Shown here: piece by piece, positions 1,913 to 18,840 of the stretch
How positions within the stretch are numbered: the first letter of the stretch is position 1
Layout: every line of letters begins with the position of its first letter
Assembly (NCBI GenBank): GCA_031372065.1
Contig: JANMKN010000223.1
Span: 1 to 19,903, forward strand
DNA length: 19,903 nucleotides
DNA from: Abditibacteriaceae bacterium
GTDB taxonomy: Bacteria > Armatimonadota > Abditibacteriia > Abditibacteriales > Abditibacteriaceae
Direction of reading: 5' to 3'
Notes under the pieces: model-generated
Databases searched by the model: none
What the model was told of the DNA's origin: nothing
What the model saw: the letters and a program-made list of their open reading frames with translations, nothing else
Made by a program: the position numbers and the translations under genes

Positions 1913-4900
1913 ATGAACGTTTTTGCACTACGGGATCACGTCATCGAGGATTATTCCAATTATATTCGTTCGTTCGTTGATATTCGTCATCCAAAGATTC
2001 AACAATTAGTGGTGCGTGAGTTAAATGAGGGGTTATTATGGCCGGAACCTCTGCTACAACTGAATCCGGCGTTCGAGCCGGGGCGCTCCATAGACCAATT
2101 GTGCGAGCAAAATCTGCTGCATCCTCTTTGTTCTTCGATCTTTCGCCGTAAAAACGAAGGCATAACCCAACCTCTCAATCTCCACAATCACCAAGATCAA
2201 GCTATCGAAGTCGCGCGCACCGGCGCACCCTATGTGCTGACCACAGGCACCGGTTCAGGCAAGTCACTCGCTTATATCATTCCTATCGTAGATTCCATTT
2301 TGCGGCGTGGCGCCGGACAAGGGGTGCAGGCTATTATCGTCTATCCTATGAACGCGCTGGCGAATTCACAAATGGGCGAACTCGAAAAATTTCTGTGCGA
2401 AGGCTTTCCTGAACGGCGTGGCCCAGTGACATTTGCGCGCTATACAGGTCAAGACAACCAACAGCGCCGTGAAGAAATCATTAACAATCCGCCAGATATT
2501 ATTCTGACCAACTTTGTGATGCTGGAACTAATGCTGACGCGCAAACGCGAAAGCGATTTATTGCGCGCCATGTCGGGTGTGCAAGGGAGTGGCTTACGCT
2601 GGTTGGTGCTGGATGAATTGCACACTTATCGTGGCCGGCAAGGTTCTGATGTCGCGGTGTTGGTGCGCCGTGCGCGCGAAATGACCTCTGGCACCGCTTT
2701 GCAGTGCGTCGGCACTTCAGCCACCATTGCAGGCAAAGGCACGCGCCGCGAGCAGCAAACTCAGGTGGCCGAAGTCGCCTCGCAACTCTTTGGCGTTCCT
2801 GTGGCCCCCGAACACATCATCGGTGAAACCTTGCGGCGCTTCACCTCTCCTCGCGATTTCACGCGCGACGAAGAAATAGTTGCCTTACGCGAAAGGCTAA
2901 TTGGCGCTGCTGCTACCGACTGTCAAGTTGACCTGCCCTCTGATCTTCTGGCGGCTTGGATTGAGACGACCTTCGGATTGCAACAATGCGAAGAAGATGG
3001 GGAACGGTTTTTCAGGCGTGCCCAACCGCGCGCTATTGGTGGTGCCAAAGGCGCTGCTCAGGAATTAGCGCAACTCACGGAATTACCCCTTAAATTATGT
3101 GAGCAACGCATTCGGGATTTCCTACTCGCTGCCTATCAATCCCCACCAGATCCGGCTACGGGGCGCACGCCGTTTGCCTTTCGCTTACATCAATGGGTTT
3201 CGCGCGGCGACACGGTTTACGCTTCGCTCGAAGCGCCATTAGAAGATCGTTATTTTACCGTTACCGGCCAAATGATGGTGCCGGGGGCGGGGCGTCAAAA
3301 GGCACTTTTCCCACTGGCGTTTTGCCGCGAATGCGGCCACGAGTTTTATACGGTGTGGCGCAGCAAAGAATCCGGCCTGTCGCACTTTTTGCCGCGCGCA
3401 CTACTGGACACACAAGAAGCCGCTGCGCCAGTGCCGAATGCGGACGCCGGATTTCTTTATGTCTCCGAATCGGCCCCGTGGCCTACCGACAGAGATCAGG
3501 TATCCCGCCGTCTGCCTGATGACTGGCTCGAAGAACATAATGCCTTGCAGCGGGTGAAGCCGGGGCAGCGCGATAACGTGCCGCAACCAATATTGGTTGA
3601 TCCAATGGGGCGCAATGACGCCACAGGCGTGCAATGCTTTTGGATGGCATCCTCGCTGCGCTTTTGCCCTTGCTGCGGCGTCACTTACAATTCCAGCCAA
3701 AAATCCGATTTCTCCAAGTTGTCCTCATTGGGCAACGAAGGCCGCTCGACAGCAACCACGATTCTGTCACTTTCGTTGATTGCCGCACTGCGTCAGGATG
3801 GACAACTCGACGCCGAAGCACGAAAGCTGCTGTCTTTCACCGATAATCGCCAAGATGCTTCATTGCAGGCAGGTCATTTTAACGACTTCATCGAAACAGC
3901 CTTGCTACGCGCTGCGTTATACCGCGCGGTCTGCGAGGCTGGTGCGGACGGCCTGCGACACGACACTTTGGCCGCCGAAGTATTTCGCACCTTGAATTTG
4001 CCGTTTGTAGAATATGCGCGTGATCCAAATGTGCGCTTTGCGGCGCGGGCCGAAGCCGAGCGTGCCTTGCGGGATTTGATTGGCTATCGCCTCTTTCGTG
4101 ATTTGCGGCGCGGTTGGCGTGTGACCAGTCCCAACCTTGAACAATGTGGCTTGCTCGAAATTGATTACGTTTCGCTTGATGAGTTGGCTGAGGCGCAGGA
4201 TGTGTGGGTGAATTTGCATCCTGCTTTGGCCGACGCTGCGCCCGAAAAGAGGCACTATCTGTCGCGCGTGCTTTGTGATGTCTTGCGCCGTGAGTTGGCT
4301 ATCCACGATAGCCATCTGGAAGGGCATTATCAGGAAGCTATGCAGAACCGCGCTGTCCAGCATCTCAAAGCGCCGCCGTCATTGTGGAACTTCGATGAGG
4401 GCGAGCAATTGGAAAAGGCGCGCGTTCTGTTTCCACGCGGACGGGCCAAAGGTTCCAGCGATTCCATCCTTGACGCTTATCTTTCGTCACGCGGCGCTTT
4501 TGGCCGCTTTGTTAAACGTGAATTGTTTGCCGGTGCCAATGCAACCGTTGAAGATGTGCAGCAAGTGCTTTGTGATTTGCTGGCGGCATTGCAAGAGGCC
4601 GGCATTGTCGAACAGGCCCATTCTTATTTGCGCCGCGCCTCACGCAATCGCTTTGGCCGCGATTCAGAACCGGAAGAACCGGGCTATCGCTTGAAAGCCT
4701 CGGCGATTATTTGGCGTTTTGGCGATGGCACGAAACCCCTGCACGATCCGCTACGCACACCGCGCTTGGCCTTTCAAGATGCCGAAGCCTGTGGACGTGT
4801 TAATCCTTTCTTCGCCGCGTTTTATCAAGGCATGGCGCAACTCTTGGGCAGCATGGAAGCGCGCGAACATACGGCGCAGGTGCCTTATGCGCAACGGCAA

Positions 4901-7255
4901 GAGCGCGAGGACAATTTCAAAGACGGCACCTTGCCGGTAATGTATTGCTCGCCGACAATGGAACTGGGCGTGGATATTCGCCAACTCAATGCGGTGCATT
5001 TGCGTAACGTGCCGCCGACACCGGCTAACTATGCCCAGCGTTCGGGCCGCGCCGGACGTAGTGGGCAACCCGCCATTGTATGGACGTATTGCACCAGCAG
5101 CAGCCCACACGATCAATATTTTTTCAAACGTCCTGAGCAGATGGTCGCCGGTGCTGTTTCGCCGCCACGCCTTGACCTTTCCAATGAAGAATTAGTGCGC
5201 GCTCATATTCACGCTTTGTGGCTGCATGAGACCGGCGCGGACTTGAAGCAATCCATGCGTGATGTGCTTGACCTAACGGGCGAAAATCCGACTTTGGAAG
5301 TGCAAGGCCCTCTGCGGGAAGCCTTCACCAGTAGCACCGCCAGAGAAAGAGCAAGGCCACGCGTTAAGCGAGTTATGGATTCACTGGGCGAAGCCGTAAG
5401 CGCCGCGCCGTGGTATTCGCCGCAGTGGTTGGACATGACACTCAGTGGTGCGCCGCACGCCTTTGAATGTGCCTGTGAACGCTGGCGTGGATTGTATCGC
5501 TCGGCGGCCCACCAGCGGGACGCGCAGCACCGTTTAGCCAATGATTTGTCGCGCGCTCCCCAAGACCGCGATCAGGCCCGTCGTCTGCGCGATGAGGCCG
5601 AGCGTCAAATCAGGTTACTCACCGATGTCGGTGAATCAGAGCATTCGGATTTTTATAGCTATCGCTACTTCGCCGCCGAAGGTTTTTTACCGGGCTACAA
5701 TTTTCCGCGCTTGCCACTCTCTGCTTTTATTCCGGGGCGTGGACGGCGCGATCAAGGCGAATATCTTTCGCGTCCGCGCTTCTTGGCGATTTCCGAATTT
5801 GGGCCACGCGCGCTCATCTACCACGAAGGTTCGCGCTATGTTATCAATCAAGTGATTTTGCCTCCGGCTACCGGCCCCGAAGGGGAATCGGTTTTGCCGA
5901 CGGAAACTTTTAAACGCTGCGCCGAATGTGGTTTTGGGCATCCAGTCAACAACGAATCCAACAGCGACTTGTGCGAGCAGTGCGGTGCGCTGTTGCCTGT
6001 GGCATGGGGTAATTTGCTTAGGCTGCAAAACGTGGCGACACGAAGGCGCGACAGGATCAACTGCGACGAAGAGGAAAGGCTTAAACTCGGCTATGAAATC
6101 CTGACTTCCATTCGCTGGCCTGAACGTGAAGGTCGCCGTGCTGTGCATGAAGCCATCGCCGAAACAAAAGGCACCGAAGTAAAAGGCGAAGTGGAACCAT
6201 TAGCGAGACTTTCTTACGCGCAGGCGGCTGCGATATGGCGCATCAATTTGGGCTGGAAACGGCGGCGCGAAGAGCATGGCCCCGGCTTTATGTTGGATAT
6301 AGAGCGCGGCTACTGGGAGAAGGCCGAAAAGGAAGAGCCAGATGACCCGTTTTCCAATCGTAAGGCTTTGGTGATTCCCTTTGTCGAGGATGCCAAAAAC
6401 TGTCTGCTGTTTGAGCCTCACCATGCGGAACAAAGCGACTCCTTCATGGCAAGTTTGGCTCATGCCTTAAAACGTGGCCTTTTAGCACGCTATGGATTGG
6501 AAGATGGCGAACTAACCGTCGAACCGCTGCCGGATGCGCGGCACCGTCGCGTGCTTTTGTTTTATGAGGCTACCGAAGGAGGTGCCGGTGCCTTGAAGCA
6601 TTTGTCTGAAACACCAAACGCACTGGCCGAAGTAGCGCGCCACTCATTAGAAATTTGTCACTTCGATGCGGAAAACGGTGACGATTTGGGCATTCCCACC
6701 GAGACAAACGAAGGCTGTGAAATCGCCTGTTACCATTGCTTACTTTCCTACACCAACCAACCGGAACATTTGCTGTTAGATCGCTTTGCGGTGCGCGATT
6801 ATTTGTTGGCACTAACGCAAACCACGGTTCGGGAAGTGCGCCCCGAATCGCCGGTTGTGGCCGATTTGAATGGTGTGGCTGAATTGGAAAAGGGCGAGTT
6901 GGTAGAAACACTAAAAGTGCCCGCTCCACTGTGGCGCGGCTGCGAATCGGAATTAGAGCGCGATTGGTTGCGCGCTCTCGTCAAGCGCGGTCATCGCTGG
7001 CCCGATGAAGCCCAACGATTGTTTAATGGTGCCGGTGTGCAGGCTGATTTTTATTATGGGCGTGGCTGCGCGATTTTTGTGGATGGCCCGCACCATGATA
7101 GTGAGAATCAAACAATTCACGATGCCACGCGCCGCGCGGCGTTAGAGGACTTGGGCGTGAGCGTTATCGCGTTTCGCTACGATGCCGATTGGGACGCGAT
7201 TTTCGATAAGTGGCCCAGTGTATTTGGCACGGCAAAAACAGTGGTTGCGAAATAG
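1913..7255 (+). CDS. YprA/DrmAB-like SF2 DEAD/DEAH helicase with DUF1998 Zn domain and C-terminal DUF559/Vsr-like nuclease domain
   Basis: Helicase motifs HQDQA, TGTGSGKS, YPMNALANSQ, LVLDELH, TSAT, FTDNRQDA, TMELGVDI and YAQRSGRAGR. Several CxxC pairs. DUF1998-like GGAG...CEIACYHCLLSYTNQ. C-terminal ESELE...ADFYY...IFVDGPHH...LEDLGVSVIAFRYD. Confidence 0.9.
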   Translation: MNVFALRDHVIEDYSNYIRSFVDIRHPKIQQLVVRELNEGLLWPEPLLQLNPAFEPGRSIDQLCEQNLLHPLCSSIFRRKNEGITQPLNLHNHQDQAIEVARTGAPYVLTTGTGSGKSLAYIIPIVDSILRRGAGQGVQAIIVYPMNALANSQMGELEKFLCEGFPERRGPVTFARYTGQDNQQRREEIINNPPDIILTNFVMLELMLTRKRESDLLRAMSGVQGSGLRWLVLDELHTYRGRQGSDVAVLVRRAREMTSGTALQCVGTSATIAGKGTRREQQTQVAEVASQLFGVPVAPEHIIGETLRRFTSPRDFTRDEEIVALRERLIGAAATDCQVDLPSDLLAAWIETTFGLQQCEEDGERFFRRAQPRAIGGAKGAAQELAQLTELPLKLCEQRIRDFLLAAYQSPPDPATGRTPFAFRLHQWVSRGDTVYASLEAPLEDRYFTVTGQMMVPGAGRQKALFPLAFCRECGHEFYTVWRSKESGLSHFLPRALLDTQEAAAPVPNADAGFLYVSESAPWPTDRDQVSRRLPDDWLEEHNALQRVKPGQRDNVPQPILVDPMGRNDATGVQCFWMASSLRFCPCCGVTYNSSQKSDFSKLSSLGNEGRSTATTILSLSLIAALRQDGQLDAEARKLLSFTDNRQDASLQAGHFNDFIETALLRAALYRAVCEAGADGLRHDTLAAEVFRTLNLPFVEYARDPNVRFAARAEAERALRDLIGYRLFRDLRRGWRVTSPNLEQCGLLEIDYVSLDELAEAQDVWVNLHPALADAAPEKRHYLSRVLCDVLRRELAIHDSHLEGHYQEAMQNRAVQHLKAPPSLWNFDEGEQLEKARVLFPRGRAKGSSDSILDAYLSSRGAFGRFVKRELFAGANATVEDVQQVLCDLLAALQEAGIVEQAHSYLRRASRNRFGRDSEPEEPGYRLKASAIIWRFGDGTKPLHDPLRTPRLAFQDAEACGRVNPFFAAFYQGMAQLLGSMEAREHTAQVPYAQRQEREDNFKDGTLPVMYCSPTMELGVDIRQLNAVHLRNVPPTPANYAQRSGRAGRSGQPAIVWTYCTSSSPHDQYFFKRPEQMVAGAVSPPRLDLSNEELVRAHIHALWLHETGADLKQSMRDVLDLTGENPTLEVQGPLREAFTSSTARERARPRVKRVMDSLGEAVSAAPWYSPQWLDMTLSGAPHAFECACERWRGLYRSAAHQRDAQHRLANDLSRAPQDRDQARRLRDEAERQIRLLTDVGESEHSDFYSYRYFAAEGFLPGYNFPRLPLSAFIPGRGRRDQGEYLSRPRFLAISEFGPRALIYHEGSRYVINQVILPPATGPEGESVLPTETFKRCAECGFGHPVNNESNSDLCEQCGALLPVAWGNLLRLQNVATRRRDRINCDEEERLKLGYEILTSIRWPEREGRRAVHEAIAETKGTEVKGEVEPLARLSYAQAAAIWRINLGWKRRREEHGPGFMLDIERGYWEKAEKEEPDDPFSNRKALVIPFVEDAKNCLLFEPHHAEQSDSFMASLAHALKRGLLARYGLEDGELTVEPLPDARHRRVLLFYEATEGGAGALKHLSETPNALAEVARHSLEICHFDAENGDDLGIPTETNEGCEIACYHCLLSYTNQPEHLLLDRFAVRDYLLALTQTTVREVRPESPVVADLNGVAELEKGELVETLKVPAPLWRGCESELERDWLRALVKRGHRWPDEAQRLFNGAGVQADFYYGRGCAIFVDGPHHDSENQTIHDATRRAALEDLGVSVIAFRYDADWDAIFDKWPSVFGTAKTVVAK

Positions 7256-7300: not shown

Positions 7301-10180
7301 ATGATGACAAATTTTTCTCCCGGCTCATTGGTAAAAGCGCGAGGCCGCGAATGGGTAGTTTTGCCGGGTTCGGATGCTGATATGATGTTGCTGCAACCTT
7401 TGGGTGGCGGCAGTGATGATGTTACCGGCATTTATAAACCCGGCGAACTCGAACCTGTTATATCGGCCACGTTTGAGTTGCCGGATGCAGCGCAAACCGG
7501 TGATGCGCGTTCGTCGCGTTTGTTGCGCGAAGCAGTGCGCCTCGGCTTTCGTTCCGGCGCGGGGCCGTTTCGTTCATTCGGGCGCATCGCTGTCGAACCG
7601 CGTCCTTATCAATTAGTGCCGCTACTGTTGGCCTTGCAACTTGACCCGGTGCGCCTCTTAATTGCCGACGATGTTGGCATTGGGAAAACCGTCGAAGCGG
7701 GTTTGATTGCGCGTGAAATGTTAGATCGAGGCGAGATTTCACGAATGTCGGTTCTGTGTCCGCCTCATTTGGCGCATCAATGGGTAGAAGAATTGCGCAG
7801 GCGTTTTCATATTGAAGCGGTGCCGGTTCTTTCCTCTACCGCGCGTCAACTGGAAACCAACTCACACCGCCGCGCCAGCGAATCCATTTTTGAATTTTAT
7901 CCGTTCACGGTGGTTTCGCTGGATTACATCAAAACCCCCGAACATAGCGAAACGTTTTTAGCCCACTGTCCCGAACTGGTGATCGTAGATGAAGCGCATA
8001 CCTGTGCATGGGTAGGTAGCGGGGTGCGGCAACAGCGGCATAAATTGTTGACGCGCTTGGCACAGTCGGCGACGCGCCACATTGTTCTGGTTTCAGCGAC
8101 ACCGCACTCTGGCGATGCGGACGCGTTTCGCTCACTTCTCTCCCTGTTGAGTCCCGATTTCGCCCAATACCCCGATGATCTTTCTGGGCCACATCATGCT
8201 GATAAACGCCGCGAATTAGCGCGCCATCTGGTGCAACGACGCCGTGCCGACATCGAGCATTATTTGAACTCGGACACGCCCTTCCCCAAGCGCGAGCCAG
8301 ACGATGAAAGTGCTTACATTTCTTACACGCTTTCACCGGAATACAAAAAGGTTTTCGAGCGCGTATTAGCCTATGCCAAAGAAACGGTGCGCGATAAATC
8401 AGGCAGCAAGTTCCACCAACGGGTGCGCTGGTGGGCGGCTTTGGGTTTATTGCGGGCGCTGGCTTCCAGCCCCGAAGCGGCGGCGGCTACGCTACTCGCG
8501 CGGGCGCGCAATATGAGTGCGATGACGGTTGAAGAAGCTGACCAAGTCGGGCGACGTGGTGTTTTCGATCTCGTTGAAGATGATGCCGCCGAAGCTGCCG
8601 ATTTAGCACCCGGCGCGCAAGTGAGTGAAGACGACGAAGGCAACAACGAAAACATTCGACGTCTGAAAGATATGGCGAAGGCAGCGCAAAAACTGGCTGG
8701 TGCCGATGATTTGAAATTGCAAGAAGCCACTAAACAGGTGCGCGCACTTTTGAACAGTGGTTTTTCGCCGATATTATTTTGTCGCTTCATCAATACAGCG
8801 GCTTATGTGGCCGAACATCTGAAAACTAAACTCAAAGGTGTCGAAGTGGTAGCCGTCACTGGCCTTATGAGTCCCGATGACCGCAAAGCTGCCGTGGAAG
8901 AATTAGCGGAGGCCACACAAGAAGGCACACGCCGCGTGTTAGTGGCAACGGATTGCCTTTCCGAAGGCATCAACTTGCAAGGCTATTTCGATGCCGTTTT
9001 GCATTATGACCTGCCGTGGAATCCGACGCGACTTGAACAGCGCGAAGGACGCGTAGATCGCTTTGGTCAACCATCCAAAGTGGTGCGGGCACTCACCCTT
9101 TACGGCAAAGACAACCAAATTGATGGCATCGTGTTGGATGTGCTGCTGCGTAAGCATCGCCAGATTCGCAAGGCGTTGGGCGTATCAGTGCCCGTTCCGG
9201 CCAGTTCCGATGCGGTTGTGGAAGCAATTTTCGATGGCCTCTTATTGCGCGGAAAAAATGTATCCACCGAGCAACTCAGCTTGTTCGAGGATTTGATAGA
9301 AAAGCGCGACATTTTTCAGAATCAGTGGGACGTAGTGGCCGAACGAGAGAAACGCTCACGCACAGTTTACGCGCACGAAAGTATCAAGCCGGAAGTCGTC
9401 AAGCAAGAAGTGGATGCGATGCGGCACGCATTAGGTGGTGCTACCGAAGTCGAGAGTTTCGTGCGCGATGCCCTGCAAACAGTCGGCACACCACTGCCGC
9501 TTTCTACGCCAGCCAGACTTGCGCTGGATGCCTTGCCCGAAGTTGTGCAGGAACCGTTGCGAACTGCCTTACCCACCAGCGATTGGAAAGCAGGTGCGTT
9601 GCGTGTGCGCTTTGATACAGCCAACGCCAAAGGCGAAACGCATTTGGGGCGAACGCATCCGCTGGTGGCAACTTTGGCTTCGCACATTTTAGAAACGGCG
9701 CTTGATTCCGTTAATGAAAAACCTTTGGCCGCGCGAAGTGGTGCGATGCGCACCAAAGATGTGACCCGTCGCACCACGCTGCTTTTAACCCGTATGCGCT
9801 TTCATATTCATCAACGGGTGAAGGGTCAAGAGCAGCGTTCGCTTTTGGCCGAGGATTGCGTCTTGATGGCTTTTCGCGGTGCGCCCGAAAACGCCGAGTG
9901 GCTCAGTGAAGAAGAAGCCGAAGCCTTGCTGCAAGCCACGCCCGCTGAAAACATTGCACCCGATCAGGCAGCGGGTTTTGTGAGTGGCATTGTGGATAAC
10001 TTCGAGGCCCTACGCGAGCCACTAAAAGAAGCGGCCCAAAAGCGCGCTCAGGAATTATTGGAAGCACACCGCCGGGTGCGCGATGCGACGCGTGCCGGTG
10101 GCAGTGTGAGTGTGGAAGCGCAACCTGAACCGGACGTGTTGGGTTTGTGGGTTTATCTGCCAGTCTTGATTGAAGCATAG
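7301..10180 (+). CDS. SNF2-family helicase (DrmD-like)
   Basis: LLIADDVGIGKT, IVDEAH, SATPH, ATDCLSEGINLQ and YDLPWNPTRLEQREGRVDRFGQ. The start could be ATG 7301 or 7304. Confidence 0.9.
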   Translation: MMTNFSPGSLVKARGREWVVLPGSDADMMLLQPLGGGSDDVTGIYKPGELEPVISATFELPDAAQTGDARSSRLLREAVRLGFRSGAGPFRSFGRIAVEPRPYQLVPLLLALQLDPVRLLIADDVGIGKTVEAGLIAREMLDRGEISRMSVLCPPHLAHQWVEELRRRFHIEAVPVLSSTARQLETNSHRRASESIFEFYPFTVVSLDYIKTPEHSETFLAHCPELVIVDEAHTCAWVGSGVRQQRHKLLTRLAQSATRHIVLVSATPHSGDADAFRSLLSLLSPDFAQYPDDLSGPHHADKRRELARHLVQRRRADIEHYLNSDTPFPKREPDDESAYISYTLSPEYKKVFERVLAYAKETVRDKSGSKFHQRVRWWAALGLLRALASSPEAAAATLLARARNMSAMTVEEADQVGRRGVFDLVEDDAAEAADLAPGAQVSEDDEGNNENIRRLKDMAKAAQKLAGADDLKLQEATKQVRALLNSGFSPILFCRFINTAAYVAEHLKTKLKGVEVVAVTGLMSPDDRKAAVEELAEATQEGTRRVLVATDCLSEGINLQGYFDAVLHYDLPWNPTRLEQREGRVDRFGQPSKVVRALTLYGKDNQIDGIVLDVLLRKHRQIRKALGVSVPVPASSDAVVEAIFDGLLLRGKNVSTEQLSLFEDLIEKRDIFQNQWDVVAEREKRSRTVYAHESIKPEVVKQEVDAMRHALGGATEVESFVRDALQTVGTPLPLSTPARLALDALPEVVQEPLRTALPTSDWKAGALRVRFDTANAKGETHLGRTHPLVATLASHILETALDSVNEKPLAARSGAMRTKDVTRRTTLLLTRMRFHIHQRVKGQEQRSLLAEDCVLMAFRGAPENAEWLSEEEAEALLQATPAENIAPDQAAGFVSGIVDNFEALREPLKEAAQKRAQELLEAHRRVRDATRAGGSVSVEAQPEPDVLGLWVYLPVLIEA

Positions 10181-10461
10181 TTTGAGGGCAATTCGTCACC
10201 GGCTTGTGGCGGATTGTTACCAGCTTTATCGAGAACTTCCAGAAAACGCTCGCCCGAACCCCGTGCGGCGCGCTGACGCAAAGCGTCTAAGCCAGCTTCG
10301 TGGCCCTGACGGCGTGCCTCAGAATCTTGCCAACGCAGGACAGCTAATTTCTCCGCAACGGCTAAAAGGGCGAGTTGATTCATGGAAACACCTTGCTCTT
10401 GGGCAAGGGATTTTAGCTCCTCGTGCAGGGACGGGGGCAATCTGAGATTTAAAACGCTCAT
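10153..10461 (-). CDS. Ribbon-helix-helix (HicB-like/CopG) antitoxin
   Basis: N-terminal LNLRLPPSLHEELKSLAQEQGVSMNQL is an RHH pattern. Its start overlaps the PIN gene stop (ATGA, 10458-10461). Confidence 0.82.
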   Translation of the reverse strand: MSVLNLRLPPSLHEELKSLAQEQGVSMNQLALLAVAEKLAVLRWQDSEARRQGHEAGLDALRQRAARGSGERFLEVLDKAGNNPPQAGDELPSNYASIKTGR

Positions 10462-10907
10462 GTGGGATTATCCTCCTGATTTTGCAAAGTCGTGAGACGG
10501 GCTAAAAATTGCGCCGGAGTGACAATCTCCGGCAAAAAACCCGCGCCGCCGCCGAAATCGCGAGTATTGAATGTAATTAGAAAATGGGCACCGGCAGCCA
10601 CAGCACACTCCAAAACCATGTCGTCTTTTGGGTCTTGGAGAACGGGACGCCATTGAAAATGAATTTCCTGCGGACGCATCATGCTAACCAAACCATCCAG
10701 AAAATCGTCCAACTCCTGCACCGTCAAACCAAATCGCTCAACGTTGCGGTGCAGCACGCCGCGATATTCCTCGAACAACAAACCAGAAACGAATGCTGTC
10801 AACTCATTTTGCGCCAGACGAAGCAAAATTTGGCGCGACGCACCAGCTTTCGAGTCCAGTGCCGCAAAGATGACATTCGTGTCTAAAACAACCCGGTAGT
10901 GTTGCAT
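10458..10907 (-). CDS. PIN-domain (VapC-like) toxin
   Basis: VVLDTNVIFAAL, EEY, DPKDDMVLECAV and LITFNTRDF carry the PIN acidic residues. Confidence 0.9.
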   Translation of the reverse strand: MQHYRVVLDTNVIFAALDSKAGASRQILLRLAQNELTAFVSGLLFEEYRGVLHRNVERFGLTVQELDDFLDGLVSMMRPQEIHFQWRPVLQDPKDDMVLECAVAAGAHFLITFNTRDFGGGAGFLPEIVTPAQFLARLTTLQNQEDNPT

Positions 10908-10935: not shown

Positions 10936-13900
10936 ATGAACTCTTCATCTCTCGCTTCTACTGTTCGCCTTGAAGGTGCGCTCTTTTCGCGCGACTTTTT
11001 AGATCGTCTCGGCGCACTTTCGTCGGACTTGCCGCATTTGTCGCCGCAAAGTTATGGACTGGCGCCCGAAGATAAATTGCGAGAGAAAATTAGCGCCAGT
11101 TGGAATGCTCTCAGTGGCCGCTGGGATAGGTTTCAAAGTGAGCTAAAAAAACTTAGCGAAGATGATTACGCCGTAGGCATCACGCGGCGCGAATGGCTGT
11201 TGCCGGTGTTGCAGGAACTCAATTTCGGGCGCGTGCAAACTGCCAATGCCATTCGCCTGACTGTCGGCGACGAAAGCAAAGAATACGCGATTTCGCATGG
11301 CTGGAATCGCACGCCGCTGCATTTGCTGGGCGCACGAGTTTCGCTCGATGTGCGCACGCAAGGCTTACCCGGCGCGGCGCAAATGGCACCGCACGCGCTG
11401 GTGCAAGAATGCCTCAATCGTTCGGGTGAGCATTTGTGGGCAGTGCTTTCTAACGGCTACAAATTTCGCGTGCTGCGCGACTCGGCGGCAATTGCGCGGC
11501 GCAGTTATGTCGAGTTCGATTTAGAGGCGATTTTCGAGAACGAAGATGCTTCCGGCTTTGCGCTGTTTTGGCTGCTTTGCCATGCCTCGCGTTTTGAATG
11601 GCGGGCGGCTGCGAATGAGGAAAACGAAGCCAACCCGCCGATTCTCGAAGATTGGCAAAAGGAAACCGAGCAGGAAGGCGTGCGCGCCCGCGATGTTATG
11701 CGCGGGGGAGTGCAAGGCGCGATTGAACATATCGGCACAGGGTTGCTGCGTCACAAAGATAACAAGCCGTTGCGCGAAGAATTGCGCAGTGGCGCGCTGT
11801 TGCCGCTGGATTTTTACAAGCTGACGTTGCGCCTTGTTTATCGCTTGCTGTTTATTCTCGTCGCCGAAGCCAAAGACAACTTGCTGCTGCCGGTAATCAA
11901 AGCGCCCCTCACCCCTAACCCCTCTCCCCCAAACGCTGCGCTGGGGACAGGGGAAAGTGAAGCCAAGGCGCGGGCCACAGCGCGTGAGCGTTACGAAAAT
12001 TATTATTCGCTGGCGAAGTTGCGCCAGAGGGCGGCCAAAACGCGCGGCACGGCGCACGAAGATGCGTGGCAAGGCTTGTGTCTGACGTTTCAATTTTTGC
12101 GCGGCGGCGAAGAAGGTTTAGCGATTCCGGCGCTCGGCGGTTTTCTGTTTCAGGAAGCAAGGCTCAAAGACGGCAGTGTGGCCTTGGAAGAATGCCATCT
12201 CGCCAATGAAGATTTGTTCGCGGCCTTGCGTCAGTTGTGCTATTTCCAGCAGGGCGCGGCGCGGCGTCAGGTCAATTTCACCAACCTCGGCAGCGAAGAA
12301 TTGGGCAGCGTTTATGAATCGCTGCTCGAACTGACGCCGCGCGTGGATTTGGATGGCTACCGTTTCCAACTCGAAACTTTGGCAGGCAACGAACGCAAGA
12401 TAACAGGCAGCTATTACACGCCGGAAATCCTCGTCAAATCGCTGCTCGATAGCGCGCTTGAACCTGTTATTGAAGCTGCGCTTCGGCGAGCGGCGAGCGG
12501 TGAGCAGCGAATGGAGAATGTATCAGATGGTGAACTCTTATCAGGATTTGGAAGTGTGGGAACGAGGGATGACTCTGGCGGAACAGGCTTATCGGTTGAC
12601 ACGCACCTTTCCGAAGGAAGAATTGTTCGGTCTGACTTCGCAGCTACGGAGATCAGCGAGTTCGATTCCGGCGAACATCGCAGAGGGATGGGGCAGGGAA
12701 AGCACGAAGGAATTCCTGCGATTTCTGAGCATAGCGATGGGCAGTCTGCGCGAAACAGAAACGCATCTGATTCTGGCACAGCGCGTGGGATTGGCGACAG
12801 CCGAACAAATTCAGCCTTTGCAACAGAACACGGAAATCTTGGGGCGTCAGCTTCTGAATCTGCAACGCAGCCTACGGCGCAAACTCGAAAAGGAAACGTA
12901 AATCCACTCGCTACTCGCCATTCGCTACTCGCCGCTCAGGAGAAAGCCCTGCTTTCGCTGCGCATTTGCGATCCGGCGTGCGGCAGCGGGCATTTTCTCA
13001 CAGCGGCGGCGCGGCGGGTGGCTTCGCGTTTGGCGCTACTTCGCACGCAGGGCAACGAACCGGAAAAGGCCGAATACCAACACGCGCTGCGCGAAGTGGT
13101 CGGGCATTGCATTTACGGCATTGACGTGAACGAAATGGCCGTCGAACTGTGCAAAATCGCACTGTGGATGGAAGGACTGGAAGCGGGACGCCCGCTGTCG
13201 TTTCTCGATTCGCATATTCGCTGCGGCAACTCGCTGCTCGGTGCCACGCCCGACATGATTGAAAACGGCTTGCCCGACGAGGCGTTTGCGGCGCTCGAAG
13301 GCGATGACAAAACTGTCGTCAGCGCGCTCAAAAAGCGCAACAAATTGGAGCGCGACACACAAACCACCACCTCGCTGTTCGTCGAAGAAAAATTGCCGCT
13401 CGGCGATTTGCGGCGCGCGATTGCCGAAATTGAGCAAGTCGGCGATGAACAACTCGAAGGCGTGCAACAAAAAGAACGAATGTTGCGCGCTCTGGAACAA
13501 TCCGGCTCCTACGATCACACCCATTTGCTTTACGATGCGTGGTGCGCTGCGTTTGTCTGGAAGAAAGTGCCTGACACGTTGCGCGGAGAAGGCGCTTTAG
13601 CCAAAGGCGAAACCAATCCCAATTTCATTGAGCCGCTGACCACCGAAGGCATTCGTTACATTCAGCAAAGCGCCTTGCCGATGTTTGCGCAGCAACGCCC
13701 TGAAATCAAGCGACTGCGCGGGCAATATAAATGGTTTCATCCGCATCTGGAATTTCCCGCCGTGTTTGGCGACAAAGGCGGGTTTGATGTGATTCTCGGC
13801 AATCCGCCGTGGGAGCGCGTCAAGTTGCAGGAAAAAGAATGGTTCGCGGCGCGCAGTCCCGAAATTGCGGGTGCGCCCAACGCGGCGGCGCGCGGGCGTT

Positions 13901-15354
13901 TGATTGAACAACTCAAAAGCGGCGATCCGGTTTTGCATGGCGCTTTTTTGGACGACAAGCGACGAGCCGAAGGCGAAAGCCATTTTGCGCGTTCCAGTGA
14001 CCGTTTTCCGCTCTGTGGACGCGGCGATGTGAACACTTACGCGCTTTTTGCCGAACTCAACCGCAATTTCATCAACGATTCGGGCCGCGTCGGTTGTATC
14101 GTGCCCTCCGGCATCGCCACCGACGACACCACCAAATTCTTCTTTGGTGACCTTGTTGAGAGGCAGAGCCTTATTAGCCTTTACGACTTTCAAAGTTCAA
14201 AAGGTTTGTTCAGCGAAATCGGTCACGCGCGATTCAAATTCTGCTGTTTAACAATGTGTGGTGCAAACGATAGTCATGGTTCTAACGCGGAATTTGCATT
14301 CTTTCTGCGCAGTGACGCCGAATTGCAAGATGCAGAACGCCGTTTCAAATTGTCGCCTGACGAAATCGCGTTGCTCAACCCGAACACCAAAACCTGCCCG
14401 ATTTTCCGCTCGTCGCGCGACGCCGAATTAACGAAGGCGATTTATCGCCGCGTGCCGGTGCTGGTCAATGAAAGCACCGGCGCCAATCCGTGGGGCATCA
14501 AATTTTCGACGATGTTCCATATGTCGAACGATTCGGGCTTGTTTGAAAACGAGCCGGACGAGGGGCGCCTGCCGCTTTACGAAGCCAAAATGCTGCATCA
14601 TTTCGATCATCGTTGGGCCACTTATGAAAACGGTGACACGCGCGATGTTAGCGACGCCGAAAAAAACGACCCGCAATTCGTGGTGCAGCCGCGCTATTGG
14701 GTCGCCGCACACGAAGTCAAAGCAAAAATGAGCGATAAATGGGACAAAAAGTGGCTGCTTGGCTTCCGCGACATTTGCCGTTCAACTGATGAGCGCACCG
14801 TTATCGCTTCGGTTTTGCCGCGCGTTGGGTGTGGAAATAAAATCCCTCTGATGATTATTGATGAGGACGTGGCCAAAGCTGCTTGTTTAATTGCCAATTT
14901 AACTGCCTTTCCTTACGATTACACATCACGGCAAAAAATAGGTAGCACCACATTAAACTATTTTATTTTCAAACAGCTCCCTGTCCTGCCGCCTTCGACT
15001 TACGACCAAACGCCGTCGTGGACGGGCGACGCCCTTTTGCGAGATTGGATAGCGCGGCGCGTGTTGGAACTGACTTACACCGCTTACGACCTGCGCGACT
15101 GGGCGCACGATTTAGGCTACGACGGCGAGCCGTTCGGCTGGGACACTGCGCGGCGCTTTGCCCTGCGCTGCGAGTTGGACGCGGCGTTTTTCCATCTCTA
15201 CGGCCTCACGCGCGACGAAACCGCCTACGTCCTCGACACCTTCCCCATCGTGCGCCGCAAAGACGAACGCGACTACGGCACCTATCGCACCAAAGACGAA
15301 ATCTTGCGGCTGTTCGATGAAATGGCAGCCTTGTGCATAGTCCCGGTAGCTTAG
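10936..15354 (+). CDS. Large N6-adenine DNA methyltransferase (Eco57I/type IIG-like, DrmMI-like) with two internal insertions
   Basis: ELGSVYESLLE, RKITGSYYTP, motif I CDPACGSGHFL, IYGIDVN and motif IV GNPPW (gamma-class order), followed by a C-terminal target-recognition region. Confidence 0.9.
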   Translation: MNSSSLASTVRLEGALFSRDFLDRLGALSSDLPHLSPQSYGLAPEDKLREKISASWNALSGRWDRFQSELKKLSEDDYAVGITRREWLLPVLQELNFGRVQTANAIRLTVGDESKEYAISHGWNRTPLHLLGARVSLDVRTQGLPGAAQMAPHALVQECLNRSGEHLWAVLSNGYKFRVLRDSAAIARRSYVEFDLEAIFENEDASGFALFWLLCHASRFEWRAAANEENEANPPILEDWQKETEQEGVRARDVMRGGVQGAIEHIGTGLLRHKDNKPLREELRSGALLPLDFYKLTLRLVYRLLFILVAEAKDNLLLPVIKAPLTPNPSPPNAALGTGESEAKARATARERYENYYSLAKLRQRAAKTRGTAHEDAWQGLCLTFQFLRGGEEGLAIPALGGFLFQEARLKDGSVALEECHLANEDLFAALRQLCYFQQGAARRQVNFTNLGSEELGSVYESLLELTPRVDLDGYRFQLETLAGNERKITGSYYTPEILVKSLLDSALEPVIEAALRRAASGEQRMENVSDGELLSGFGSVGTRDDSGGTGLSVDTHLSEGRIVRSDFAATEISEFDSGEHRRGMGQGKHEGIPAISEHSDGQSARNRNASDSGTARGIGDSRTNSAFATEHGNLGASASESATQPTAQTRKGNVNPLATRHSLLAAQEKALLSLRICDPACGSGHFLTAAARRVASRLALLRTQGNEPEKAEYQHALREVVGHCIYGIDVNEMAVELCKIALWMEGLEAGRPLSFLDSHIRCGNSLLGATPDMIENGLPDEAFAALEGDDKTVVSALKKRNKLERDTQTTTSLFVEEKLPLGDLRRAIAEIEQVGDEQLEGVQQKERMLRALEQSGSYDHTHLLYDAWCAAFVWKKVPDTLRGEGALAKGETNPNFIEPLTTEGIRYIQQSALPMFAQQRPEIKRLRGQYKWFHPHLEFPAVFGDKGGFDVILGNPPWERVKLQEKEWFAARSPEIAGAPNAAARGRLIEQLKSGDPVLHGAFLDDKRRAEGESHFARSSDRFPLCGRGDVNTYALFAELNRNFINDSGRVGCIVPSGIATDDTTKFFFGDLVERQSLISLYDFQSSKGLFSEIGHARFKFCCLTMCGANDSHGSNAEFAFFLRSDAELQDAERRFKLSPDEIALLNPNTKTCPIFRSSRDAELTKAIYRRVPVLVNESTGANPWGIKFSTMFHMSNDSGLFENEPDEGRLPLYEAKMLHHFDHRWATYENGDTRDVSDAEKNDPQFVVQPRYWVAAHEVKAKMSDKWDKKWLLGFRDICRSTDERTVIASVLPRVGCGNKIPLMIIDEDVAKAACLIANLTAFPYDYTSRQKIGSTTLNYFIFKQLPVLPPSTYDQTPSWTGDALLRDWIARRVLELTYTAYDLRDWAHDLGYDGEPFGWDTARRFALRCELDAAFFHLYGLTRDETAYVLDTFPIVRRKDERDYGTYRTKDEILRLFDEMAALCIVPVA
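11905..11953 (+). repeat. REP-like palindromic element inserted in-frame in the methyltransferase gene
   Basis: CCCCTCACCCCTAACCCCTCTCCCCCA...TGGGGACAGGGG forms an imperfect hairpin with a C-rich leader and translates as PLTPNPSPPNAALGTG. Confidence 0.65.
12484..12518 (+). repeat. Left 7-nt tandem repeat array of the nested element
   Basis: CGGCGAG CGGCGAG CGGTGAG CAGCGAA TGGAGAA. Confidence 0.8.
12518..12901 (+). CDS. Four-helix-bundle protein (23S rRNA intervening-sequence protein family), nested in the +1 frame of the methyltransferase gene
   Basis: SYQDLEVWERGMTLAEQAYRLTRTFPKEELFGLTSQLRRSASSIPANIAEGWGRESTKEFLRFLSIAMGSLRETETHL is the family signature. The start is probably ATG 12527 (GGAG at 12513-12516) or 12518, not the TTG at 12458. 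Confidence 0.92.
   Translation: MYQMVNSYQDLEVWERGMTLAEQAYRLTRTFPKEELFGLTSQLRRSASSIPANIAEGWGRESTKEFLRFLSIAMGSLRETETHLILAQRVGLATAEQIQPLQQNTEILGRQLLNLQRSLRRKLEKET
12907..12937 (+). repeat. Right 7-nt tandem repeat array, complementary to the left array
   Basis: CTCGCTA CTCGCCA TTCGCTA CTCGCCG CTC. Bases 12928-12937 are the exact reverse complement of 12488-12497, and 12918-12926 of 12506-12514. Confidence 0.8.
15182..15327 (+). repeat. Direct repeat, copy 1 (methyltransferase 3' end)
   Basis: 146 bp matching 16345-16490 with 12 mismatches by manual alignment. Confidence 0.92.
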
Positions 15355-15437
15355 TGCATAGTCTGGGAAACGTTGTGCATAGTCCCGGTAGCGTTATCCA
15401 GAGTCCCAGTAGCGTTATCCAACGTCACCGCAACGCT
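15333..15437 (+). repeat. 21-bp tandem repeat, 5 progressively degenerate units
   Basis: GTGCATAGTCCCGGTAGCTTA / GTGCATAGTCTGGGAAACGTT / GTGCATAGTCCCGGTAGCGTT / ATCCAGAGTCCCAGTAGCGTT / ATCCAACGTCACCGCAACGCT. Confidence 0.8.
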
Positions 15438-15640: not shown

Positions 15641-15958
15641 ATGGTTTTCCTTTAAACTTCCACGTTCACCCGCCGCGTGACCGAACTGCTGCCAGATGAT
15701 GAATACCGCAATCTGCAAGGAAAACTGGTTGATCGCCCCGATTCCGGTGACATCATTCGCGGTAGCGGAGGCATTCGCAAGTTGCGATGGGGACTGCAAG
15801 GGCGGGGTAAACGCGGCGGGGCGCGTTTCATTTATTACTGGGCCAAGGGGCAAGATCAAATCTTGATGCTGTTCGTTTTCACCAAAAATGAAGCGGACGA
15901 TTTGACGCAAGATCAAATTCACCAACTGCGGGCCATTGTGGAAGGAGAATATCCATGA
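15641..15958 (+). pseudogene. higB: RelE/HigB-family toxin with a premature stop at codon 5
   Basis: MVFL*TSTFTRRVTELLPDDEY...GDIIRGSGGIRKLRW...GKRGGARFIYY...FTKNEADDL, with in-frame TAA at 15653-15655. The ORF track starts it at GTG 15677. Confidence 0.8.
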
Positions 15959-16317
15959 AAGACGAATTATTTCAGGAACTATTAGAAAGCGTGCGCGAAG
16001 GCGGCGCTATAATGCGCGGCGAGCAGGAAGCGGCCCGCCGTTTTGAATTGGCATCGCCGGATGTGCGCCGTTTGCGCGAGGAGGCCGGTTTTTCGCAGCG
16101 TGAGTTCGCCACCTTGATGGGCATCAGCCCCGGCACGCTGCGCAACTGGGAGCAAGGCCGCCGCCAACCCGAAGGTGCTGCGCGTGTGTTGCTCGCTGTG
16201 GCTGCAAAACATCCCAAAATCGTTTGGGGCGTAGTGCGCCCTTCGACTGTCCGCACCACCAAACGGCGCCCTGTCGCCTCAGCAAAGCGCCGCCCTATCG
16301 CCAATAGCAAAGCCTAA
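15955..16317 (+). CDS. higA: HigA/NadS-like XRE helix-turn-helix antitoxin
   Basis: MKDELFQELLESVREG...FSQREFATLMGISPGTLRNWEQGRRQPEGAARVLL, with a GGAG Shine-Dalgarno and an ATGA overlap with the toxin stop. Confidence 0.88.
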   Translation: MKDELFQELLESVREGGAIMRGEQEAARRFELASPDVRRLREEAGFSQREFATLMGISPGTLRNWEQGRRQPEGAARVLLAVAAKHPKIVWGVVRPSTVRTTKRRPVASAKRRPIANSKA

Positions 16318-16344
16318 AACAGCTACAAACTCATTAACGACACA

Positions 16345-16508
16345 CGGCGTTTTTCCAACTCTACGGCCTGAGCCGCGACGAAGCCGCTTATGTGATGGCC
16401 ACCTTCCCCATCGTGCGCCGCAAAGACGAACGCGACTACGGCACCTATCGCACCAAAGGCGAAATCTTGCGGCTGTTCGATGAAATGGCAAACGGAGTAT
16501 TAAATTAA
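16345..16508 (+). pseudogene. Direct repeat, copy 2: orphan methyltransferase 3' end
   Basis: Translates as [53 protein letters not shown]. The repeat itself spans 16345-16490. Confidence 0.88.
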
Positions 16509-16523
16509 ACTCTGAGCTTAACC

Positions 16524-17126
16524 ATGCCTAACCAACGCACCTCCAAGCCGATCATCATGGTATCGTCGTCGGTTTACCAAATTGAATCGTTGTTGAATCA
16601 AATTTATGGTGTGCTTGACGGCTGGGGCTACACTGTCTGGATGTCGCATAAAGGCACGGTGCCTGTGCATCCGGGAAAAACCGCTTTTGAAAATTGTCTG
16701 GAAGCAACGCGACAATGTGATTTGTTTTTAGGTTTGATTACGCCATTTTATGGGAGCGGCAGACAAACCGGCGAACCCTCCATTACGCATCGTGAGATGC
16801 TACTTTCCATCGAAATTGATAAGCCCCGCTGGTTTCTGGCACACCATGATGTGGTTTTCGCGCGCCAGATTCTCAAACAATACCGATTCAAAGACAAGAT
16901 GGCAAATGAGTCTTTTACGTTTCGCGCGACCAAAGTCATGGATCATATCGGTGTCGTCGAGATTTATGAAGCAGCGATTCGTGCCGATCTCGACGAATAC
17001 GAACAGCGCACGGGCAATTGGGTGCAGGAATACATAACACCGCAGGACGTGCTTGGATTCATTGAGGCGCAATTTGGCGATAAGAAACGTATCAAGGCAT
17101 TTTTGAAAGAGGCGAAGCAATCATGA
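16524..17126 (+). CDS. DUF4062-like (TIR/NDT-fold) protein
   Basis: IMVSSSVY...GYTVWMS...AFENCLEATRQCDLFLGLITPFYGSG...SITHREM matches the DUF4062 pattern. Confidence 0.78.
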   Translation: MPNQRTSKPIIMVSSSVYQIESLLNQIYGVLDGWGYTVWMSHKGTVPVHPGKTAFENCLEATRQCDLFLGLITPFYGSGRQTGEPSITHREMLLSIEIDKPRWFLAHHDVVFARQILKQYRFKDKMANESFTFRATKVMDHIGVVEIYEAAIRADLDEYEQRTGNWVQEYITPQDVLGFIEAQFGDKKRIKAFLKEAKQS

Positions 17127-18535
17127 GCCGACTGGCCATTCAAGACCTGCTAAAAGCGGGTGAATCACAGGATCGCGAGTTCAAACGCAATGCGGCGAAT
17201 TTGGACGCTATCGGCGCGTCGGTCTGTGCTTTTCTTAATACGGAAGGCGGCACCCTGCTCATTGGAGTGAGCGACGCCGGGCGCATTGAACCTGTGGTAG
17301 ACGCGGATGAGAAAATCGCTGCTATCCAATCTCATGTGCAAGAGCGTTTATCACCAAAGGCTTTGTGGTCAGTCACCAAGGAAGTGACGCCGCAAGGCGA
17401 AATACTAAGCGTAGACGTTCCATCGGGGCAAGACCGCCCTTATCTGTTCAAAGACAGAATTTATCTCCGTCAAGGCCCAAATTCGAGGGTAGCCAAGGCC
17501 GAAGAGATTCGTAAATTGGTGTTGGCACGCGCGGGAGAACCAACCCGTTGGGAACGACTGGCCGCGCCGGGATTGGAATTAACCGACCTTGATGTTATAG
17601 AAATCAAGACCACCTCTGACATGGCTCGCAAAGTTGGAGCATCAAGCGTCCGCCGTCCGCCTGAGAGTGTCACCGGCCCCATCGAATTTGAACAAATGCT
17701 GGCTGAATGGTCGTTGTGGCAATTCGGGGTATTAACGAATGGCGCTGCTGTGCTTTTTGCCAATAATCCTGCGCTACGTCTACCGCAGACTCGAATCCGG
17801 GCCAGTCGTTTCGAGACAGACAAAGGCGGCAATTTCATTGATGACCGGGTTTTTGAGGGACACGCTTTTGATGTGTTGGAGCAAGTTTTTTCCTTTGTTC
17901 GGCAGCACGTTCGCATCGAAGGTCATTTTGAATCCGCTGGTTACCAGCGTGAAGACCGCCCAGAATATCCTTTCGCGGCGTTACGCGAAGGGATCATTAA
18001 CGCCATTATCCATCGTGATTACGAATCTTTCTCCGGCGGGATGGCGATTGGCATTTATCCGCACCGTATCGAGATTTGGAATTATGGCAGGCTACCGGAT
18101 GGCTTAAGAGTGCAAGATTTAAAAAAGAGCCATCCTTCTCTCCCCTCAAATCCCGATATGGCGCACGTCTTTTACTTGCGTGGCTTCATCGAACGATTAG
18201 GGCGTGGAACACAAAAAATCGTGCAAGAGTGCGAAGCGGCGGGCCTTCCTTCGCCTACTTGGAAAGTTTCTGAGTCTGGGATTACCCTGACGTTCTTTGG
18301 CCGCCAGTCTATGGCGACTACCAAGCCCCTCAACAGTCGCCAGAAGGCTTTGCTGCAACGGCTCGAACCGAGTCAGATAATTCATCCTGCGGATTATTAC
18401 AAAGAGATGATTAACCAGATTAGCCAAAGACAAGCTCAACGCGACTTGACTGATCTCGAAAAAAGCGGCTGGCTAAAGAAAGAAGGCGATGGCCCAGCAA
18501 CTGTTTACCTCCGAACTGAGAAAGAAATGGAGTGA
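17123..18535 (+). CDS. AlbA_2 (Schlafen-like) + RecG-C/HATPase_c_4 + C-terminal wHTH protein
   Basis: GESQDREFK, CAFLNTEGGTLLIGVSD, YPFAALREGIINAIIHRDY, IERLGRGT and SQRQAQRDLTDL...GDGPATVY. ATGA overlap with the upstream gene. Confidence 0.88.
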   Translation: MSRLAIQDLLKAGESQDREFKRNAANLDAIGASVCAFLNTEGGTLLIGVSDAGRIEPVVDADEKIAAIQSHVQERLSPKALWSVTKEVTPQGEILSVDVPSGQDRPYLFKDRIYLRQGPNSRVAKAEEIRKLVLARAGEPTRWERLAAPGLELTDLDVIEIKTTSDMARKVGASSVRRPPESVTGPIEFEQMLAEWSLWQFGVLTNGAAVLFANNPALRLPQTRIRASRFETDKGGNFIDDRVFEGHAFDVLEQVFSFVRQHVRIEGHFESAGYQREDRPEYPFAALREGIINAIIHRDYESFSGGMAIGIYPHRIEIWNYGRLPDGLRVQDLKKSHPSLPSNPDMAHVFYLRGFIERLGRGTQKIVQECEAAGLPSPTWKVSESGITLTFFGRQSMATTKPLNSRQKALLQRLEPSQIIHPADYYKEMINQISQRQAQRDLTDLEKSGWLKKEGDGPATVYLRTEKEME

Positions 18536-18565
18536 TGTTTAGGACGCAAGTGTAGGAAACCAATA

Positions 18566-18711
18566 TACCCAGACATATCCAGACATGAATTTGTCTGGCG
18601 GGGCGGGGGGGGCCTCAAAAAATCGGGGTTTGCCTGCAATTTGTTCGACAAAACCAAGTATTTAATGCTCTTACAAGATGAAAAGAGCGAGAATCCAGAC
18701 AAATCCAGACA
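18566..18711. repeat. Cluster of CCAGACA motifs in the intergenic region
   Basis: TACCCAGACA TATCCAGACA (18566-18585), inverted TGTCTGG (18592-18598), and AATCCAGACA AATCCAGACA (18692-18711). Confidence 0.7.
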
Positions 18712-18840
18712 TTTGCCATGCCTTAAAAATACAGACTACAAGAGGAACCGATGTGAGTGGATGCTACCGAACATGGACGCCAATCTTTGAATGGATTGCT
18801 CTGATGTCACAAAAGTTATTTGGAAAGCGAAGGTAAACCA

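Follow-up and report, generated by a model that had tools for sequence, protein, structure and literature searches.

The locus described here raises the question of how a gene for a large enzyme can hold a complete second gene within its own coding sequence and still be open from end to end. It lies in a stretch of 19,903 nucleotides (nt) from an Abditibacteriaceae bacterium (contig JANMKN010000223.1 of assembly GCA_031372065.1), referred to below as the window. A PglX-like adenine DNA methyltransferase gene of a defence operon (the host gene) contains, in its +1 frame, a gene for a four-helix-bundle protein that is bracketed by complementary arrays of 7-nt repeats; the bracketed unit is termed the cassette. 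The reading that we favour, at a probability of roughly four in five, is that this heptamer-armed cassette is tolerated by read-through, being translated in the host frame as a disordered loop of the enzyme.

The nested open reading frame (ORF) was assigned to its family with profile scores of 133.9 bits for PF05635 (cut-off 33.8) and 132.6 bits for TIGR02436 (cut-off 24), and the top PDB match of its product was 2GSC (E 1.7e-27). The host ORF is open all through the insert, with zero stops; its reading of the insert has 21 Ser and 21 Gly among 147 residues and no Cys, Trp or Tyr. The period-7 arrays proper span 12484–12510 and 12906–12932. Pairing of the arms over 32 nt (12484–12515 with 12903–12934) gave 25 Watson–Crick pairs, three G.U pairs and four A/C mismatches, with alternative registers at shifts of −14, −7 and +14 nt. 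The GGA of the Shine–Dalgarno sequence is part of the inner end of the predicted stem and pairs with the 3′ arm. Folding z-scores were −2.25 for the sense strand and −3.37 for the antisense strand. A preliminary description of this DNA, made from the letters alone, had proposed a four-helix-bundle gene with its own Shine–Dalgarno sequence nested in an open host frame between arms able to pair in several registers; the observation is confirmed in each of these respects. Feature coordinates are given in Table 1.

Table 1. Features of the window (all on the + strand)
Feature	Position	Remarks
YprA/DruE-like helicase, operon gene 1	1913..7255	DEAD, Helicase_C, MZB
SNF2 (DrmD/BrxHII-like) helicase, operon gene 2	7301..10180	
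Host gene, PglX-like/Eco57I-like adenine DNA methyltransferase, 1472 aa	10936..15354	Pfam Eco57I, MmeI_Mtase, N6_Mtase; PADLOC DrmMI, E 6e-58
Second in-frame insertion in the host gene, short gene-less period-7 palindrome, multi-copy	11905..11953	47 blastn matches in the window genome, self included
Host YYTP motif, aa 493	12412..12423	Anchors the insertion loop on its upstream side
5′ arm, purine-rich 7-nt array	12484..12515	Unit CGGCGAG; inner end overlaps part of the Shine–Dalgarno sequence
Approximate insert, 147 codons against modal empty spacing	12490..12930	Host frame Ser/Gly-rich, predicted unstructured
Shine–Dalgarno-like GGAGA of the nested gene	12513..12517	9 nt ahead of ATG 12527
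Nested four-helix-bundle ORF (PF05635/TIGR02436), 124 aa, +1 frame of host	12527..12901	Alternative in-frame ATG at 12518
3′ arm, pyrimidine-rich 7-nt array	12903..12937	Unit ACTCGCT/C; in the host frame, start of a predicted helix that leads on to motif I
Host motif I, DPACGSG, aa 679	12970..12990	Intact
Host catalytic motif IV, NPPW, aa 956	13801..13812	Intact

The 119 top homologues of the methyltransferase were taken, and the spacing between the YYTP motif and motif I was measurable in 113. It was 39 aa in 59 of them (the mode) and 42 aa in 30, against 186 aa in the window; five hold a similar insert and a few hold shorter ones. A homologue from a genome of the same family (G024) matches both flanks and lacks query residues 232–379. 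Judged by these alignments, the cassette is a true insertion in the host gene, with a length of 147 codons because the window spacing is 186 aa and the modal spacing 39 aa. The ends are not definable to the base, since the nearest empty relatives are only ~60% identical. The preliminary description had excised 444 nt (148 codons); the insertion and its empty site, seen as a spacing of 39 or 42 aa in 89 of the 113 homologues, held, and its length was replaced by 147 codons.

The arrangement recurs. PF05635 matched 75 of 151 genomes of the phylum, and 94 copies were sampled (the best 90 of about 240 matches and four others). Period-7 arms, with a unit specific to each locus, are present in most of the 94, which makes such arms a general feature of the family, as had been supposed. 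Most copies (89) are free-standing. The −1 frame is free of stops in six, five of which lie within long ORFs; all five nested copies are in DNA methyltransferase genes, at three different sites (DUF1156 being a methyltransferase family). For a collection blind to reading frame, a DNA pattern was used that joins the ANIAEG motif of the nested gene to host motif I at any distance from 265 to 325 nt. It matched 52 genome loci and 92 metagenome loci, 80 of the latter being examined; together with the window this gave 133 loci. Nine that were not true four-helix genes were dropped. Of the 124 true copies, 120 keep the host phase and 118 are free of host-frame stops. The genome collection contributed 50 true loci out of 52, all in phase and stop-free, from 13 named phyla (eight loci had no phylum); in the metagenomes 73 of the examined loci were true, 69 in phase and 67 stop-free. 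Among the named genomes with a nested copy are Nitrosomonas sp. ANs5 (L112) and Chlorobium sp. KB01 (L114), the host genes of both being of PglX type as judged by motif. The viral collection yielded zero matches to the same pattern. The expectation that intragenic copies keep the host frame was borne out by these counts.

A profile of three shadow peptides (the host-frame reading of the cassette) was searched exhaustively against 1.84 billion proteins. It matched 146 proteins, 64 of them long true matches; two other long matches (P0066 and P0121) were dropped as spurious. A word-indexed search with the insert gave just two other proteins among 878 candidates. By BLAST or Pfam, the 64 long proteins comprise 46 methyltransferases, four histidine kinases, two nSTAND1 proteins, one intein-containing protein and one DnaE, with ten left without a class; the non-methyltransferase cases are known at the protein level only. 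In the histidine kinases (P0017, P0043, P0082 and P0138) the shadow peptide and arm-like flanks occupy one and the same position, immediately ahead of the ATPase-domain motif DTGIG. In P0068 and P0135 the peptide lies within an intein-domain region and within a DNA polymerase III alpha subunit, respectively.

The small protein might be a working partner of the defence enzyme, a regulator or RNA-binding subunit whose linkage is fixed by nesting, rather than a mere passenger. The confinement of the five nested family-sampled copies to methyltransferase genes and the 46 methyltransferases among the long shadow-peptide proteins point that way, and the family is also found in cas loci, according to the part of PMC3936711 consulted. 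Most close hosts are empty, however, 89 of the 94 sampled copies are free-standing, and the shadow peptide also occurs in the kinases, nSTAND1 proteins, intein and DnaE listed above. We regard a partner role as unlikely, although it and tolerance by read-through are not mutually exclusive.

Selection was measured on both frames. For the nested set, the four out-of-phase loci and one locus with a stop in the nested ORF were dropped, leaving 119 copies, or 74 after dereplication (80% identity clusters). For the free-standing set, the five nested copies and seven with in-frame stops were dropped from the 94, leaving 82, or 80 after dereplication. The nested ORF is under purifying selection, with a ratio of nonsynonymous to synonymous substitution rates (dN/dS) of 0.12 over 13 disjoint pairs. 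Across the 74 nested copies one host-frame stop was observed against 138.9 expected from synonymous shuffles, and the host frame was open in 73 against 11.2 expected. The −1 frame of the 80 free-standing copies held 355 stops (422 expected); the third frame was not depleted (445 observed, 420 expected). Expressed per site, T before AA, AG or GA was used at one of 1307 sites in nested copies versus 355 of 1503 in free-standing ones.

The host frame also avoids particular residues. Third-position T that makes host Cys, Trp or Tyr was depleted about fivefold (34 of 646 nested sites versus 196 of 760 free-standing sites, at a third-position GC content, GC3, of 0.55–0.7), and T was commoner at Ser-making sites in nested copies (315 of 722 versus 175 of 580 in free-standing copies, GC3-matched). 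Gene by gene, the direction of the Cys/Trp/Tyr effect was avoidance in all 74 nested copies (74:0) versus 51 of 79 free-standing copies (51:28), and avoidance was seen in all five nested groups and in four copies found without the DNA pattern. Nearness to a stop does not explain it, because TCA, TCG, TTA and TTG, each one change from a stop, are not avoided. Among stop-free shadow peptides, Cys and Trp make up 0.7 and 0.3% in long proteins versus 2.7 and 1.5% in short ORFs, and Tyr and Phe are also scarcer in the long proteins. The host-frame dN/dS of 2.3 is near that of the third frame (2.1) and of free-standing −1 frames (1.7); since it resembles that of non-coding frames, the loop sequence is not conserved. 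On these codon statistics the composition of the loop is constrained though its sequence is not, and the insert is probably translated as part of the host enzyme. Among the fates that the preliminary description had offered for the insert, that of a tolerated, dual-coded loop is favoured by the removal of stops and Cys/Trp/Tyr codons from the host frame together with the conservation of the nested ORF.

An open frame can arise by luck: 2% of 300 synonymous shuffles of the window ORF leave the host frame open, and one of the 80 free-standing copies is open in its −1 frame. That the window holds a recent, gene-killing insertion of this kind is nevertheless barely credible. The host motifs are intact; T occupies none of 16 stop-making and none of 22 Cys/Trp/Tyr-making sites in the window, yet 14 of 24 Ser-making sites; and in a close relative, of ten changes listed for the host sequence upstream, seven are silent.

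The selection results also bear on whether the insert is spliced out of the RNA or bypassed by ribosomes, giving back the compact enzyme. Deleting about the stem-bounded stretch restores near-native spacing, the stem would juxtapose take-off and landing points, and one 7-nt register is in frame. Obligatory skipping, however, predicts an unselected host frame, and skipping is hard to square with the data because selection removes stops and Cys/Trp/Tyr codons there. Excision of intervening sequences (IVSs) is described as occurring without ligation in the part of PMC4990558 consulted, and the window has zero Rfam matches. No joint skipping the cassette was found in contigs of three DNA runs (one study), one of which may have yielded the window DNA, and one RNA run (another study), a weak negative. 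Removal or bypass at the RNA level, one of the fates proposed earlier, was thus not borne out and is very improbable. In the RNA run, one contig of the close relative spans the 5′ junction unspliced (12328–12588) and a second covers 12584–12883, at depth 2. Six changes are listed in its nested ORF, of which four are silent there and five alter the host frame. Gene parts without RNA cover in run X4 were not counted as evidence.

An AlphaFold model of window positions 12262–14001 (68 rows) had a predicted template modelling score of 0.73. Residues 87–208 had a predicted local distance difference test (pLDDT) score of about 31, and most of the flanking core was above 90; the arm-encoded residues prolong helices on both sides of the insert. 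The insert is thus predicted to be unstructured, with the enzyme core intact around it. The loop is not mappable on a solved structure, because Foldseek gave no significant match of the model in the PDB (zero at E ≤ 0.001; the top weak rows were BrxX/PglX and CamA).

The stem might instead be cut by RNase III, as in 23S rRNA IVSs, so that the methyltransferase mRNA is tuned or destroyed and only uncut transcripts are read through. A 32-nt stem does bracket the nested gene and the window genome encodes RNase III (rnc). In the parts of the sources consulted, the Coxiella IVS is described as excised by RNase III (PMC4990558), and mRNAs with Correia elements as cleaved by this enzyme at the inverted repeats of the elements (PMC10969869). 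Cleavage would be compatible with read-through. Against it, a mismatch interrupts the stem about every 7 nt, and in 41 of 72 nested copies the fold of the antisense strand is the better one. The ratio of G.U to A.C on the sense strand is 59:28 in free-standing arms, whereas nested arms, at 71:73, lack the bias (Fisher p 0.006, relatives not being independent), which fits relaxed selection on an RNA stem once the cassette is nested. Regulation by cleavage is therefore considered improbable, about on a par with the partner role. Pairing with foreign arms was also scored: own-arm pairing was best in 21 of 72 nested and 37 of 74 free-standing copies, the specificity being modest because related loci share units. 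In four nested copies (L123, L124, L157 and L201) extra reversed-order arrays are present in the arm regions, and each side is able to form its own local hairpin.

Arms built of 7-nt units could also act as a slippage switch, gain or loss of a unit turning the methyltransferase off or fusing its N-terminal third to the small protein. Loci L180 and L189 share an identical core, yet L189 is two units (14 nt) short in the 3′ arm and has a frameshift; in the window no stop interrupts the +1 frame between 12458 and the end of the 5′ arm, and several library proteins depart from the host frame right after the insert. L189 may, however, be an assembly collapse. Only ten of 69 close pairs differ in arm-region length, and nine of 11 differences are multiples of 3. 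The window arrays are short and degenerate (80–85% matches), with no indel in the sequencing runs compared. Such a switch is accordingly rated as distinctly improbable, below cleavage by RNase III.

The cassette is scattered over the host tree. On a tree of host flanks with 159 tips (51 filled, 100 empty and eight with other inserts) a minimum of 11 changes between filled and unfilled is needed; since the empty hosts sampled were all near the window enzyme, all-filled clades elsewhere are uninformative. The window host falls in a group whose other members are empty hosts and a single filled one (support 0.996). On the small-protein tree nested status changes at least nine times, and the window protein belongs to a clade of 42 made up of nested copies only (support 0.997); the arms in this clade are similar and the hosts are scattered over the host tree. 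The window junctions are shifted two to three codons from those usual in the clade, whose spacers they do not have, and this points to a separate insertion of the window cassette rather than transfer with its flanks.

The window genome (G000) holds 200 period-7 arrays, 66 of them with a nearby inverted partner, and the loops are mostly too short for a gene. The cassette arms have two and one blastn matches in this genome, self included; the palindrome in the host gene (Table 1) is absent from the G024 homologue. Some gene-less heptamer hairpins (contig C83, about 1950–2600) follow tRNA-like 3′ ends, upstream of a dnaX-like gene, and loci L036 and L102 have a four-helix cassette in the matching tRNA/dnaX region. 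Several more short arm-like peptide stretches occur elsewhere in the host methyltransferases P0003, P0004 and L017, which suggests that gene-less hairpins were inserted in frame repeatedly in these proteins.

The favoured reading may be set out as follows. A mobile cassette, consisting of a 7-nt array, a Shine–Dalgarno sequence, a four-helix-bundle gene and a complementary 7-nt array, has entered a tolerant loop between the YYTP motif and motif I of a defence methyltransferase. It would stay in the mRNA, and ribosomes in the host frame would translate through it, giving a full-length enzyme with a disordered loop of approximately 125 residues and two flanking helices lengthened by arm-encoded residues. 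Ribosomes initiating at the internal site in the +1 frame would make the small protein. Selection conserves that protein and, through its third codon positions, holds the host frame stop-free and poor in Cys, Trp and Tyr. Both proteins are presumably made and the enzyme active; host-frame ribosomes may melt the stem and so uncover the internal start, and the cassette may move by way of its arms.

Several points weigh against this reading. Six of the 124 true loci are broken in the host frame (four out of phase, two with a stop), each by a single stop or frameshift, and one is broken in the nested frame. The DNA pattern fixed one codon choice for ANIAEG and one site, and would miss decayed copies. 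Because of relatedness among the nested copies, which form 45 clusters at 70% identity, the counts overstate independence, and the free-standing sample comes from one phylum. The low pLDDT of the insert is partly built in, as few aligned rows cover it. The nested-only clade could be in part an artefact of the shared two-frame constraint. Identity between hosts tracks identity between cassettes (rho 0.49), though with exceptions in either direction, so the cassette has in large part spread vertically. No clear target-site duplication was found at the inspected junctions, the empty alleles being too distant to define one, and no mobilising enzyme turned up, no transposase search having been made. 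The RNA run consists of contigs at depth 2 from a relative, with possible DNA carry-over, and cannot show ends.

Taken further, and only tentatively, the cassette could be a frame-transparent element, which beside introns and inteins would give selfish genes a third means of residing within host genes. It would belong to a specialised lineage of heptamer-armed four-helix-bundle genes whose −1 frame is pre-adapted to give a harmless disordered loop and whose arms serve to move them into loops that tolerate them, in methyltransferases, kinases and other proteins. Its Avd-like protein would both bind and spread the many gene-less heptamer hairpins of these genomes. We consider this wider proposal rather doubtful as a whole.

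The host gene is the third of an operon in which Pfam gives only DEAD, Helicase_C and MZB for the first helicase. The order of YprA-like helicase, BrxHII-like helicase and then PglX-like methyltransferase is that of ARMADA Type I as given in the part of bioRxiv 10.1101/2025.09.15.676423 consulted; by gene order the operon is ARMADA-type-I-like. It differs in having a toxin–antitoxin pair (PIN-domain and HicB/ribbon–helix–helix-like, 10153–10907) on the minus strand between the SNF2 helicase and the methyltransferase. A phage terminase large subunit-like ORF (245–1789) lies directly 5′ of the operon, and the island may be in or beside a prophage. Downstream, the defence island continues with DUF4062, Schlafen AlbA_2/HATPase_c_4 and REase-ARP genes (16524–19644). 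The 3′ end of the methyltransferase gene (15178–15327) is duplicated at 16341–16490 (87.5% aa identity over 48 residues), behind a RelE-like/helix–turn–helix pair (15677–16317), as if the pair had come in by recombination at the gene end. A degenerate 21-nt tandem array (15333–15421) overlaps the methyltransferase stop codon.

The locus offers recurrent, natural same-strand dual coding in bacteria with selection measurable on both frames, and shows defence enzymes tolerating a mobile unit that bears a gene, without evident splicing. Gene callers give only the long frame, so that the small genes stay hidden and low-complexity inserts are what the shadow peptides are annotated as. Either frame can be knocked out without the other, which would provide a clean test of the large, uncharacterised PF05635 family and of the heptamer hairpins. 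No description of the nested arrangement was found in the literature searched, most subscription papers being outside the search. The terms 'four helix' and '23S' are absent from the main text of a survey of bacteriophage exclusion (BREX) systems (PMC12839542) and from that of the ARMADA preprint (10.1101/2025.09.15.676423).

By the features tested, the cassette is not an IVS, an intein or an intron. In the parts of the sources consulted, 23S rRNA IVSs (Coxiella, Leptospira; S23p/PF05635) are cut by RNase III without ligation (PMC4990558) and share with the cassette the protein family, size (428–444 nt), complementary ends forming a stem and sporadic distribution; the family also occurs in rRNA inserts of the candidate phyla radiation (10.1101/2024.02.27.582315). 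The cassette differs in lying in an mRNA within a coding frame, with zero Rfam matches in the window, in having arms of 7-nt arrays, in the selection on the host frame through it and in that excision is unsupported; its ORF is conserved, whereas that of Coxiella is reported as decaying (PMC4990558). The earlier label 'IVS-like' therefore holds for the protein family and the terminal stem, and IVS membership fails because the cassette is not in an rRNA gene helix. Avd of diversity-generating retroelements (4DWL) is described as structurally homologous to 2GSC in the part of PMC10053308 consulted. 2GSC is the top PDB match of the window protein, and Avd is absent from its three PDB sequence matches; no reverse transcriptase or template/variable repeat was found among the scanned main ORFs of the window.

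Inteins and group I/II introns are mobile units inside conserved genes that do not kill the host and recur at particular sites. The cassette likewise lives in a conserved gene, but it is apparently tolerated by dual coding instead of removal and has no endonuclease or reverse transcriptase. No intein family was found in the Pfam scan of the host, the insert has no Cys, and no group I/II intron was matched in the window at the Rfam gathering score. Phage lambda Rz1 in Rz, phiX174 E in D and Bacillus subtilis comS in srfA are same-strand nested genes and, like the cassette, let one strand encode two proteins in different frames, the second with an internal start. These overlap an existing host coding sequence, whereas the cassette is a ready gene arriving by insertion, the host frame being the new, unstructured one, and its arrangement is repeated in unrelated hosts. 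Rickettsia palindromic elements (RPEs) are read in frame and, in the part of PMC10969869 consulted, are not described with a second out-of-frame gene. [quoted passage not shown] As far as those sources go, the cassette is about three times longer, includes a whole second gene that has its own start and lies in another frame, and conserves the out-of-frame protein instead of the host-frame peptide. RPE-type elements are short, multi-copy, near-identical units without a second gene; the cassette has a gene of 124 aa and arms with two and one matches. It is best filed as combining an IVS-type gene with MITE-type in-frame tolerance.

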